64,000 nucleotides of DNA from Eledone cirrhosa (taxonomy: Eukaryota), in assembly GCA_964016885.1 (NCBI GenBank), contig OZ024749.1, forward strand, positions 36,890,001-36,954,000. The letters are read 5' to 3'. Positions within the stretch are counted from its first letter, which is position 1; each line of letters opens with the position of its first letter. The notes beneath the pieces are model-generated. The model had not been told where the DNA came from, made no database searches, and saw nothing but the letters and a program-made list of their open reading frames with translations. Made by a program: the position numbers and the translations under genes. Shown piece after piece: positions 9,143 to 42,798 of this stretch.

Positions 9143-9651
9143 TATAAAAGTGGATGAATACTTCAACAGGTACTAAGTACTTGTAGAAATATGCAAGGTG
9201 TTTATAATAGTTGTGGTTCGATGGTACTAATTTGAGATACCAGAACAATATAAAAAGAGCGGAGCAAGCGGTTATCAAACAATTTTCTAAATAAATTAAA
9301 AAACGATTTAAATAATCACCTGTTCTATTGCTGTTACCGACGGTTTCACCATTCCAAATATTGGAAATCCAGAGAATTTCCAATGGAAAGAAGTGGATCT
9401 TCAGACAGCTTATTTCCATACTATAAGGTTGCCAGCCTTACAGAAAGTAAATATTTCGCTTCCTGCCCAACGCATGCGGTCAAGCCGTTAAAATGACACA
9501 CACGCAAAATCAGGTCGCAGATAATAGCTGTTTATTATAAACAGTAGCATTATTCAACGTTTTGATCTCTACATAAGGAGAAAAATTATAAAAGTGGATG
9601 AATACTTCAACAGGCACTAAGTACTTGTAGAAATATGCAAGGTGTTTATAA
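9143..9651 (-). mobile_element. 444-bp-period non-coding unit with 65-bp terminal direct repeat, carrying a hammerhead motif (Penelope-like/retrozyme-like)
   Basis: 9143-9207 matches 9587-9651 with one mismatch; hammerhead motif at 9330-9409. Confidence 0.65.
9330..9409 (-). ncRNA. Type I hammerhead ribozyme motif
   Basis: Minus strand: GCTGT CTGAAGA [stem II with ATTGGAAATTC/GGATTTCCAAT hairpin] GAAA CCGTCGG TA ACAGC. Stem I GCTGT/ACAGC, triplet GUA. Confidence 0.72.
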
Positions 9652-9877
9652 GTTGAATTACCAACAAATTATATATATATATATAAACATTAAGTGTTTG
9701 ATGTTCTGCATAATATATTCGGTTGTACTTAACTGCTTCACTTTCATGCAGATGGCGGTAGTGAGTAATTAACTCCCAGCCGTGGTATTAATAATACACT
9801 TTTAATGTTGTGCATTAATACAAATTTTGAGATGGAAAAAAGCCATCTACATTTCAACTGGGCCCTTGCCATTATTT

Positions 9878-10190
9878 CAAATCGGCCGAGGTTAACTTTG
9901 CCTTTCATCCTCACGGGGTCGATAAAATAAAATACCAGCAATGCACTGGGGTAATTGCTGGCCTTCTGCCAAAAGCAGAAACAATTATTACAATGTGGTG
10001 AATTGGCAGTATCGGTAGAGCGTCAGACACTATGCTTTGCAGCATAGAGTTATGGCCGTTTGTGTTCTGAGTTCAAATCCTACCGAGATTAACTTTGCGG
10101 GGGTCGTCCTTACCGGGTCGATAAAATAAATCACCAGTAATGCACTGGGTAATTGCTGGCCTTGTGCCAAAAGTAGAAACAATTATTACA
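9878..10190 (+). mobile_element. Two head-to-tail copies of tRNA-derived SINE family A (about 190 bp)
   Basis: A-box-like TGGCAGTATCGGTAG, B-box GAGTTCAAATCC, body gttaactttgcctttcatcc...ggccttgtgccaaaagtagaaacaattatt; many copies in the window. Confidence 0.88.
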
Positions 10191-10915
10191 CATGAGTATA
10201 TGTGAACGTGTGTGTGTATGTGAGTGTGTGTGTGCATGTGTGTATATGTGTGTGTGCGTGCGCGCTCTCAAGTCTTTGTATGTGGATGTGTGTGTGTGTG
10301 TGTGTGTGTGTATGTGAGTGGGTGTGTGCATGTGTGTGTGTGTGTGTGTGTGTGTGTGTGCGCTCTCAAGTCTTTGAATGTGGATGTGTGTGTGTGTGTG
10401 TGTGTGTATGTGTGAGTGTGTGTGTGTGCATGTGTGTGTGTGTGTGTGTGTGTGTGTGTGTGCGATCTCAAGTCTTAGTATGTGGATGTGTGTGTGTGCG
10501 TCTGATTCTTCATTGGAGCAAATAGTGTCAAAGAGTTTCTGTGCAGTCCTCACAAGAACGCAGAGGTGATGCTCTAAGATCTATACGTGATAAAATATTA
10601 TTCAACGGAATATTGTCCGTCCGAAGCCAACATAGTTTCGTACACGTCCCTATTATGCTTAACGCTATCTTAGTGCTACTGTGTCAATTATGTATATATA
10701 TATATATATATGTAGTGTATGTATATATATATATATATATATATATATATATATATAAATATATATATGTAGTGTATATATATATATATATATATATATA
10801 TATATATATATATATATATATATATATATATATGTATATATGTATGAATATATATATATATATATGTATATATATATGTAAGAATATTTATATATATATA
10901 TATATATATATATGT

Positions 10916-11110
10916 ATAGGAACCAGTAAGACCCCGACAGCTGAGCTCAAGCCGTTTCGACGGCTAATTCTGTCCAGAATTAGCCGTCGAAACGGCTTGA
11001 GCTCAGCTGTCGGGGTCTTACTGGTTCCTATGACCCACTCTACTACCTCAAGTATTGAGTACTTTGGTGCGTTATGGTCCACCTGGTTCCTTACCACACT
11101 TCCTTCGTTA
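10916..11110. mobile_element. Palindromic short element (perfect 57-bp arms, 2-nt loop) plus about 80-bp unique tail
   Basis: 10916-10972 is the exact reverse complement of 10975-11031; relatives at about 27990, 36430 and 46718. Confidence 0.85.
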
Positions 11111-39660: not shown

Positions 39661-40789
39661 ATATAACATAATTTAACATTATATATATAGCTTATGCTGA
39701 CCAGATAACCATGTTGCTTGTTTTTTTCCTATCTTCGGTTTGCTTTTATCCTTCTATGTTGTTTACTTGTCTCACTCGCTTTACGCGACTAACTTGTCCC
39801 AATAGCTTTTTTTAGTTATTGCTCGCACCAACCTGAGGTATATGATTTTTAATGCGATGAAATACCAATGATGGTTGGCAAATCACTGACGAGGGACTAA
39901 TTTTATAATATGTAACCCATGTGCAACCACGCAGTATTCCTCTCTCTTCTCATGTTTTTTATACATATATATATATATATATATATATATATACATGTGT
40001 GTGTGTGTATGTATGTGTGAATGTATGCATACATATGTACGCACACGCACATATATGTCTGCTCCATTCTATTTATTTCTTCCTCTTTTTGTCCTTCCAT
40101 GTTACCCCTTTCCATATCATTGCTCATACTTATTCATCTGTATCACACCTGCCTTACCTTTACTTATCAACACAATAATATATTCTCCTTACCCAGTCAC
40201 CACCACCACCACTACACACCACCACCACCACCACCACCACCACCACCACCACTACACACCACCACCCACCACTACACACCACCACCACCACCACCACCAT
40301 CACCACAACCACCATCTCTAGTACTTTACCATCACCACCATGTCACCACCACCACCAACACCACCACCACTACACACCACCACCACCACCTCTACACACC
40401 ACCACCACCACCACCACCACAACCACCATCTCTAGTACTTTACCATCACGACCATGTCACCACCATCACACACCACACACCACCGCCATCACCACCACCA
40501 CTACACACCACCACCACCACTACACACCATCACCACCATGCGTGTGTGTTTGTGTGTTTCAAGCTTTGCTGAAATTCTTGACGAGTTAGTTTCAATATAA
40601 TAAAGTAACTCTGGTGTGGAGTAATTCAGTTGGTTACGTGACAACTTCTATAATGTTGTGAAGGTATCATGGTGTGGTACAGTGCCTTGTCTCTGGCTTG
40701 CCCTTGCTTGCTTTTGTCTTCCTACTGTCTGTCGCCATTCTTCTCTTTTGGTTTGTGTTAGTGGTGTGCTACTGTGCTGTTATGTTGTG

Positions 40790-41195
40790 TGTGTTGGTGT
40801 GTGTTGGTGTGTGTTGGTGAGTGTTGGTGATTTTGGTGAGGTTTGGTGCGTGTTGGTGTGTGTTGGTGAGTTTTGGTGTGTTGGTGAGGTTTGGTGCGTG
40901 TTGGTGTGTGTTGGTGAGTTTTGGTGTGTTGGTGTGTGTTGGTGTGTTGGTGAGTTTTGGTGTGTTGGTGTGTGTTGGTGTGTTTTGGTGTGTTGGTGAG
41001 GTTTGGTGCGTGTTGGTGTGTATTGGTGAGTTTTGGTTTGTTGGTGTGTTTTGGTGTGTGTTGGTGTGTGTTGGTGTGTGTTGGTGTGTGTTGGTGTGTG
41101 TTGGTGTGTGTTGGTGTGTGTTGGTGTGTGTTGGTGTGTGTTGGTGTGTTGGTGTGTTGGTGTGTGTTGGTGAGTTTTGGTGCGTGCTGGTGTGT
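40790..41195. repeat. (GTGTTGGTGT)n minisatellite
   Basis: Direct reading. Confidence 0.9.
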
Positions 41196-42732
41196 TGTAT
41201 GAGTTGGTGAGTTAGTGTGTCTCTCTTGGTTATATATATATATATATGTATATAGGTATTTTGATATACACACACACACACATATATATATATATAAATA
41301 TATATATATATATATATATATATATATATATATATTATATATATCATACATATTTGCATCATATATATGCGTATATATACAGATATATATACATATATTG
41401 TATATATATATATTTATATATATATATATATATATATATATATATATATATATATATATATATATATATAAGTTATATATCTGTGTGTGTGTGTTTGAGT
41501 TTGTGCGATTTCGTGTGTGTCTGTATTTAAATATTCATATACTTGCATACCTCTATATATATTTAGATACACATACACACTGACACACGCATATATATAG
41601 TATATATATATATATATATATATATATATATATGCGTGTGTGAGTGTGTATGTGTATCAATATGTATCTATATGTGTATATATATATATATATATATATA
41701 TATATATATATATATATATATATATATATATACATATGTTCATATATACATATGTTCATATATATATATATATATATATATATATATATGTACACATATA
41801 CAGCCGTTGATATACACATGTCGACATACCATAGAGAAACGGCACCACACTTACCACCATCATGACCTTCACCACCCCCATGACCTTCACCGCCCCCATG
41901 ACCTTCACCGCCCCTATCACTCTCACCGCCCCCTCTTACTACACTCGAAGGTATACACCAATTTATCACATCGTGTCTAGAGAAGAAGAAGAAGAAGAAG
42001 AAGAAGAAGAATGATAATGATAATAATAATAATATTAAGAAGAAGAAGAAGACGAAGAAAAAGAAGAAATAAGAGAAAACAGAAAACCAATAATAACATC
42101 AATAACAACATCAATAACACTAACAATAACAAAAACAATAACAAAAATGGTGGTGTTAACAGTTGACAAGAGGTGAGGACATAGATGTCCTCATTGCATT
42201 ATGTAAATTAACCATATTCGTATGCTGGCACGACCTTAAAATGGCGTCCACATCACATTTGTTGAGCTTTCAGTCTTATAGTGGAAAACAACAACAATAA
42301 TAATAACACCAGCAATAAGATGTGGGTATACGGTTATATGTATATATATATGTTTGTATATATATATATATATATATATATATATATATATATATATATA
42401 TATATATATGTGTGTATATATATATATGTGTGTATATATATATATATATTTGTGTATATATATATATATATGTGTGTGTATATATATATATATATATATA
42501 TGTATATATATATATATATATATGTATATATATATGTATATATATATATATATATATATATATATGTATATATATATATATATATATATGTATATATATA
42601 TGCAAAAGTTTTATTTAAAATTGTTGGGTTACAACAAGTAAATATTTTATAACTGATATAAAGCACTCGACAAGTTTTTGGAGTAGATATACGATACTAA
42701 ACAAATGGAAACTATATTTATAAAACCATATT

Positions 42733-42798
42733 TATTTCACTATACATATTTCGGGGATACCATATTAAAAATATGGCATGCCTTCGTCAGATAAAATA
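42733..42798 (-). ncRNA. Type I hammerhead ribozyme motif
   Basis: Minus: TATTTTAT CTGACGA AGGCATGCCATATT-TTT-AATATGGTATCCCC GAAA TATGTA TA GTGAAATA. Confidence 0.72.

Follow-up and report, generated by a model that had tools for sequence, protein, structure and literature searches.

A stretch of 64,000 nucleotides of the Eledone cirrhosa genome (contig OZ024749.1 of assembly GCA_964016885.1, positions 36,890,001 to 36,954,000 of the forward strand; hereafter the window) carries five hammerhead ribozyme motifs embedded in (TA)n microsatellites, with no reverse transcriptase (RT) gene beside any of them. What elements do these motifs belong to, and which enzyme could have placed them there? 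Rich in microsatellites, the window is animal DNA from a genome of 3.0 Gb, and a first reading of its letters (the original prediction) took the motifs for abundant non-autonomous elements of possibly undescribed families. We consider it highly probable that four of them are the 3' ends of truncated coding elements of the Hydra clade of Penelope-like elements, and that the fifth belongs to a tandem retrozyme likely copied by the enzymes of that clade.

The window was searched with a descriptor for type I hammerheads, which requires CUGANGA, a paired stem II, GAAA, a palindromic stem III/loop, UH and a stem I of at least 5 bp. It recovered exactly the five complete cores predicted earlier, at 9330-9409 (-), 36714-36779 (+), 37213-37283 (-), 38159-38229 (+) and 42733-42798 (-), and no others; in all five the CUGANGA, GAAA and UH elements follow in order, together with stems I-III. 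This frequency is far above chance, with 199 of 200 block-wise dinucleotide shuffles of the window giving no match and the remaining one a single match. From the sequence, cleavage is predicted after positions 9335 (-), 36771 (+), 37221 (-), 38221 (+) and 42741 (-). The palindromic stem III/loop and the relation to Penelope-like elements, both part of the first reading, were upheld, but the motifs are not the minimal hammerheads they had been called, their stem II being 31-50 nt long. All five are real; however, those at 37.2 and 38.2 kb, listed as separate, belong together as the arms of a single inverted insertion, 99.5% identical over 422 bp. Rfam hammerhead models, suggested as a check, gave no support: in local scans the motifs at 9.3, 37.2 and 38.2 kb received no hammerhead score, and no hammerhead was among the matches listed (150 of 606). 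The absence of an adjacent RT or GIY-YIG open reading frame (ORF) is true locally, tblastn of three Penelope-type ORFs over the window having returned no remnants. No scrambled-order hammerhead was found among the CUGANGA sites of the window, for which no dedicated descriptor was run.

Abundance in the genome was assessed by pattern searches counting exact matches, with reversed patterns as controls. One pattern covering the four A/B motifs (families A, B1 and B2) and their relatives gave 37,584 matches and that of the 9.3 kb motif (family C) gave 607, with none for either reversed control, in agreement with the abundance claimed at the outset. Sixteen stretches, selected for paired matches, were then fetched for A/B. 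Four of them contain frames of 738-821 amino acids with RT and C-terminal endonuclease motifs beside family A ribozymes, the ORF-bearing copies being arranged in tandem (3.3-3.9 kb apart) or inverted; an intact ORF of 800 amino acids lies upstream of a family A ribozyme, accompanied by tandem and inverted repeats. A single ORF for an RT together with a GIY-YIG-type endonuclease at the C-terminus precedes the ribozyme in L031, L033 and L034 (family A) and in L127 (family B2), and in partial form in B1. The full-length B2 copy L127 has an open frame of 750 amino acids followed by an untranslated region of 1.64 kb and then the ribozyme. The corresponding features of the window are given below; short and long refer to the two distances from the cleavage site at which insertions reach (TA)n.

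36630-36815 (+): family B1 5'-truncated copy with the hammerhead at 36714-36779 and a short end, assigned by similarity to ORF-linked B1-type copies.
37089-37845 (-): family A long arm of the inverted insertion (3' untranslated region, hammerhead, tail), from alignment to L031.
37146-37170 (-): first tail hairpin of family A, with ACTC/GAGT outer pairs and a TA bulge, read from the sequence and found family-wide.
37213-37283 (-): family A hammerhead of the left arm, from the descriptor.
37846-38267 (+): family A short arm of the same insertion, with a short-site end in (TA)n.
38159-38229 (+): family A hammerhead of the right arm, from the descriptor, cleavage predicted after 38221.
42602-43068 (-): family B2 5'-truncated copy with the hammerhead at 42733-42798, a tail hairpin at 42665-42684 and a long end, from alignment to L035 and L127.
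9080-9123 (-): family A fragment of about 42 nt from the extreme 3' end, between two TA runs, 100% identical over 42 nt to the 3' end of L033.

Over 745 nt the left A arm of the window shares 91.5% identity with the 3' end of the full-length L031, and the 42.7 kb copy (B2) is 87% identical to L035 over 478 nt and ends on the same last bases before (TA)n as L127. Copies of B1 type that are 87-92% identical to that of the window over about 177 nt sit 2.3-2.8 kb behind a partial ORF, itself 69-90% identical to the B2 protein. The link to an ORF is shown by intact ORFs for A and B2 and by a partial ORF for a B1 subtype. On these alignments we read the A, B1 and B2 motifs as the 3' ends of 5'-truncated Hydra-clade elements. 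In the 9080-9123 fragment, which lies in TA beside the family C copy, nothing but the final bases of the family A tail is present; such nesting of different families in one TA tract is frequent.

The Hydra clade, its hammerheads and its insertion into (TA)n were published in 2021, including the Octopus bimaculoides family Hydra-1_Obim (PMC8557442); the clade is defined by DKT, a CxCX5C linker, CxxC, CxH and RWK, with a length below 3 kb as a tendency only (PMC8557442). As described for that clade (PMC8557442), families A and B combine a single ORF for an RT and a C-terminal endonuclease, bearing the DKT, CxCX5C and CxxC/CxH motifs, with a type I hammerhead near the 3' end, insertion into (TA)n with a tail at one end, and partial tandem as well as inverted 5'-truncated copies. 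DKT, CxCX5C, CxxC and CxH are all present, and CCHH is absent, in an alignment of the family A and B2 ORFs with those of another family, E (42-54% identical to that of A); L127 has Y at the first linker C, where other B2 copies have C. By eye, the N-terminal part of the ORFs is homologous to Hydra-1_Obim. Naiad elements are defined by an N-terminal endonuclease and the lack of a canonical hammerhead (PMC8557442), whereas here the endonuclease is C-terminal and the hammerheads are canonical. Unlike the published Hydra families, A and B are longer, have a stem II of 31-36 nt and tails of 85-105 nt against 30-40 nt, and occur in tens of thousands of copies (PMC8557442); their ribozyme sequence also differs from that of Hydra-1_Obim (PMC8557442).

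Assignment to the Hydra clade is weakened by several observations. In the RWK motif only RW is kept, the third residue being T or I in A and R in B2 and E (RWT/RWI/RWR), and the element length (tandem spacing of 3.3-3.9 kb in A, about 4 kb in B2) is above the typical Hydra length of less than 3 kb. No intact ORF was seen among the B1 copies examined. Pfam recognised neither the RT nor the endonuclease in the ORFs, so that the domain calls and the membership of the clade rest on motifs and not on a tree; searches against solved structures did not recognise the ORFs either.

An insertion end was scored where a run of five or more TA stood at either of two distances from the cleavage site, which are specific to each family. 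Of 295 distinct copies from seven families, 264 reach (TA)n at one of the two distances, compared with 5-6% at random positions, which bears out the preference for (TA)n noted at the outset; this count is to be read with reserve, as the end windows were set after inspection of the same data. The short and long distances are about 43 and 132 nt in A, 49 and 139 nt in B2 and 81 and 187 nt in C, and the end lies at a fixed site in 43 of 48 copies of A, 18 of 20 of B1 and all 15 of B2. Inverted pairs combine one long and one short end in 45 of 51 cases (9 of 10 in C), and the family A pair of the window does likewise.

The fifth motif, at 9.3 kb, belongs to family C, which is likely a non-coding, non-autonomous tandem retrozyme, probably copied by Hydra-clade enzymes. 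The term 'non-autonomous' in the first reading suits this family and not the other four motifs, which come from 5'-truncated coding elements of the Hydra clade. The features of family C in the window, where the copy spans about 1.15 units, are as follows.

9143-9651 (-): family C insertion, with a 65-nt terminal direct repeat (9143-9207/9587-9651) and a long-site end in (TA)n.
9330-9409 (-): family C type I hammerhead, cleavage predicted after 9335, from the descriptor, the 607 genomic matches and double-sided changes in stem II.
9216-9246 (-): family C first tail hairpin, with GTTC/GAAC outer pairs and a 2-nt 3' bulge, just 3' of the short end site.
9566-9581 (-): second hairpin of family C, whose inner stem is short, lying just 3' of where the upstream unit has its long end site.

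The family C unit is 457-468 nt long, has a GC content of 35% and holds no stop-to-stop frame longer than 69 amino acids. Copies are often head-to-tail, with neighbour spacings of 456-468 nt in 53 pairs, and one array, internally 99% identical and bounded on either outer side by (TA)n, consists of 19 units (19.1 x 457 nt) on one strand and 9 on the opposite strand. Folded as a circle, the unit reaches -120 kcal/mol, compared with -91 +/- 5.6 kcal/mol in 60 shuffles (z = -5.2). A Hydra ORF piece lies upstream of none of 61 distinct C copies as against 8 of 46 for A, a comparison that is not a census because the loci were in part picked for their length. A metagenome scan with alignment A5 found no relatives.

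Like the retrozymes that lack long terminal repeats, called non-LTR retrozymes (PMC7229834; 10.64898/2026.07.22.740005), family C is non-coding, low in GC and strongly folded, with one type I hammerhead per unit and head-to-tail arrays, and its unit lies at the top of the 150-450 bp quoted for retrozymes (PMC7229834). It differs from the published ones in its 50-nt stem II, its two-armed inverted arrays, its fixed two-site (TA)n ends and its Hydra-type hairpins (PMC7229834; 10.64898/2026.07.22.740005). According to the 2026 preprint, vertebrate non-LTR retrozymes derived from Penelope terminal repeats (10.64898/2026.07.22.740005). The words 'octopus' and 'cephalopod' are absent from the main texts of both sources (PMC7229834; 10.64898/2026.07.22.740005), and a literature search combining octopus, hammerhead or ribozyme, and Penelope returned only Craig et al. 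(PMC8557442) and a squid genome paper. Families A, B and C thus look undescribed in the literature searched, in line with the original prediction, while the kinds of element they represent are already known (PMC8557442).

Stem II folds better than its shuffles (z < -2) in 33 of 35 distinct variants of C and in 32 of 47 of A/B/D (D being a further type caught by the A/B pattern). Covariation, called for as a check, supports stem II by cell counts, though not by pair counts: double-sided changes affect 4 pairs (33 cells) of stem II in C and 6 pairs (82 cells) in A/B/D, and the cell counts, which related copies inflate, exceed those of all 500 shuffles in both sets, but the pair counts do not stand above shuffles (129 and 116 of 500). 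As the search patterns fixed stems I and III, these are uninformative in this respect. The computed probability that stem III closes in a monomer is 0.001-0.002, while a palindromic duplex between two molecules is computed at -10.5 kcal/mol for A and -11.3 kcal/mol for C. Cleavage as dimers is the published proposal for such motifs (PMC4209133), and solo monomers are predicted to be nearly inactive. The A arms of the window lie on opposite strands, so that dimerisation within one transcript would be impossible. The pair counts weigh against the reading proposed here, as does the weak loop III duplex of family B (-2.2 kcal/mol); cleavage, expression and circles of these RNAs are putative, being read from genomic sequence.

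The families share, beyond the ribozyme, a bulged hairpin located about 6-10 nt after the short end and built from four outer pairs and an inner stem, with a bulge of 2 nt on the 3' side. By a descriptor derived from the same families as those tested, 130 of 150 copies with a long end have this first hairpin (39 of 42 in C), as against 0.6-2.8% of shuffles; one B1 match is a different hairpin. In C two of the outer pairs are replaced by compensatory ones. Outside these families, an unrelated Hydra-like element from public contigs has the hairpin 53 nt after its cleavage site, as the sole match on that strand, and by eye it is seen in the published Hydra-2_Amil and Hydra-2_Ajap and twice in Hydra-1_Ajap (PMC8557442). 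A second hairpin, after the long end, is present in 15 of 15 read-through copies of C (related copies) and 3 of 4 of E. The main text of Craig et al. uses neither 'stem-loop' nor 'hairpin' (PMC8557442), and no literature joining Penelope-like, Hydra, pLTR and stem-loop was found in a search with little coverage of subscription journals; supplements could bear on this point.

The conserved bulged hairpin is likely an RT start signal. We lean, with some hesitation, towards the fuller proposal that the hairpins after the two end sites act in cis as start signals for Hydra-clade RTs, and that C, having kept both with compensatory changes, was by this means transferred from a single circular RNA to either end of a (TA)n cut. 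What tells against it, apart from the origin of the descriptor, is that of two further outside families one has a partial hairpin match and the other none, that the hairpin is not evident by eye in the published Hydra-1_Obim (PMC8557442), that under the strict descriptor the second hairpin is found in only 1 of 4 read-throughs of A and 0 of 2 of F, and that in C its inner stem is just 1 bp long. If the proposal is true, the enzyme and the recognition signal behind the mobility of animal retrozymes would be identified.

The mechanism that we envisage is drawn by analogy with in vitro work on the anole element Poseidon PAc (PMC11167929). In this element of Anolis carolinensis reverse transcription begins at two internal sites that bound the tail, cutting and extension take place on both DNA strands, and in vitro the hammerhead need not cleave (PMC11167929). 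The present families resemble it in having two putative start sites that define a tail, a hammerhead upstream of them, AT-rich targets that would be cut on both strands and a stem-loop placed where initiation would occur (PMC11167929). PAc belongs to another clade and its stem-loop is AC-rich and lies within the ORF (PMC11167929), whereas the hairpin here is bulged, 3' of the end sites and upstream of the ORF start; furthermore, PAc was demonstrated in vitro (PMC11167929), whereas the present families are known from the genome alone. By this analogy, the RT-endonuclease would cut both strands within (TA)n, and the RT would bind its template at the hairpins and start complementary DNA synthesis a few bases 5' of each, with one start site per DNA end. 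Such use of the two sites would yield back-to-back arms with the tail of 85-105 nt on one arm only, and early termination would leave ORF-less, ribozyme-bearing 3' ends like those in the window. For family C, transcripts of the arrays may be cleaved into monomers by hammerheads that act as dimers; the monomers would then probably be circularised and read round by a Hydra-clade RT. The hammerheads may be dispensable for the insertion itself.

Could all five motifs instead be stand-alone non-autonomous hammerhead elements? In the window none of them has an ORF nearby, genomic copies are mostly short, and family C fits this description. For A and B2, however, it is already refuted by the full-length alignment of the window copies with the 3' ends of ORF-bearing elements; moreover, the 5' ends of A/B copies vary as in truncations, none of the A/B copies of the window was seen in short tandem units, and B1-type copies connect to an ORF. 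As an account of all five motifs it is hardly credible. It is very unlikely, too, that the C arrays are a satellite that arose from a relic Penelope terminal repeat and expanded at the DNA level through slippage or unequal crossover. Local tandem amplification from the end of a Penelope-like element is discussed by Li et al. 2026 (10.64898/2026.07.22.740005), and C is known here from genomic sequence; yet its arrays are dispersed and flip strand once in mid-array, and they meet (TA)n at the two sites, short and long, where single copies also end; such ends are not produced by unequal crossover.

It is unlikely, though less so, that C is mobilised through RNA by a different Penelope clade, for instance by Naiads, and that its hairpins resemble those of the Hydra families by convergence or coincidence. 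Octopus Naiads are listed with a TA preference and share tails and inversions (PMC8557442), and C has no sequence homology to A or B2 elements, even the letters of its hairpins being different. A search for an autonomous, coding sister of the C ribozyme with a short stem II yielded none, its 10 matches being mostly deletion variants of C, which also counts against a Hydra origin. On the other hand, the C hairpins match those of the Hydra families in shape and in offset from both end sites, the C ribozyme has U at positions 10.1 and 11.1, as is common in published Hydra hammerheads (PMC8557442), and cephalopod Naiads are described as long-inactive remnants (PMC8557442), in contrast to C arrays that are 99% identical. 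We therefore retain copying by Hydra-clade enzymes as the likely origin of family C.

These elements appear suited to two questions, namely how Penelope-like elements form tails and inverted arms, and which enzyme moves animal retrozymes. The genome offers a number of young Hydra families whose ORFs are intact, insertions with precise ends in the tens of thousands, and a candidate passenger retrozyme (C) that has a defined hairpin of 20-45 nt in common with the Hydra families. Since Rfam and Pfam scans missed these ribozymes and ORFs, similar elements may be under-annotated elsewhere.

Further families of the same type were encountered. Family E is a Hydra-type element with an intact ORF of 719 amino acids (L197:3580-5736) and at least 17,938 3' halves and 4,025 whole ribozymes in the genome. 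Its hammerhead mostly has the variant core UUGAGAA or UUGAUAA (U3-A8) with a stable stem III and is predicted to be active as a monomer; in a minority, A8 is combined with C or G at position 3. The U3-A8 variant is known from Penelope-like elements of Schistosoma (PMC4209133). Family E had been considered a half-ribozyme short interspersed element (SINE), an interpretation rejected on finding longer copies with the whole U3-A8 ribozyme and the ORF. Family F (L211-L230) numbers at least 10,834 canonical hammerheads; pieces of a Hydra-type endonuclease lie near them, the tail hairpin is the same, and intact copies have a canonical stem I. The decayed motif predicted at 63.6 kb is indeed a decayed copy of this family, although it does not satisfy the descriptor. 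The copies of E and F in the window are:

10917-11110, 36428-36630, 27970-28108 and 46735-46790: family E copies, truncated inside the ribozyme.
63460-63750 (-): family F decayed copy, with the core at 63584-63626 and the tail hairpin at 63484-63523.

Family G, outside the window (L241:1194-3683, L242:7019), has many intact Hydra-type ORFs of 830 amino acids in tandem units of about 6.7 kb and a hammerhead-like motif, read by eye, with a stem II of about 115 nt. An RT piece in L059 was considered as the ORF of B1 itself and rejected, as it belongs to family G with its own ribozyme, the join to the B1 ribozyme being a chimera. Other chimeric joins (L147-L161) place 3' halves of family E behind CUGANGA halves of other families; together, these joins suggest template switching between families. 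The A/B pattern also catches types D, A2 and others (L002-L030 region, G000:C1) with differing stem II sequences, type D lying behind Hydra-type endonuclease pieces. At 13891-13920 (+) there is a minimal hammerhead-like core with an ACGU palindrome and weak stems, in a repeat shared with 44467-44521; it fails the descriptor.

The window contains other repeats as well. A SINE-like repeat of 130-200 nt forms tandem clusters at 9861-10190, 16856-17453, 38627-39657 and 47484-47644, with TTAGGG-like repeats mixed into the cluster at 39390-39612. Broken non-LTR retrotransposon ORFs, unrelated to the hammerheads, lie at 6238-8044 (-), 44174-45064 and 62214-63202 (+); we take these to be CR1-like, REL-endonuclease and RTE-like.

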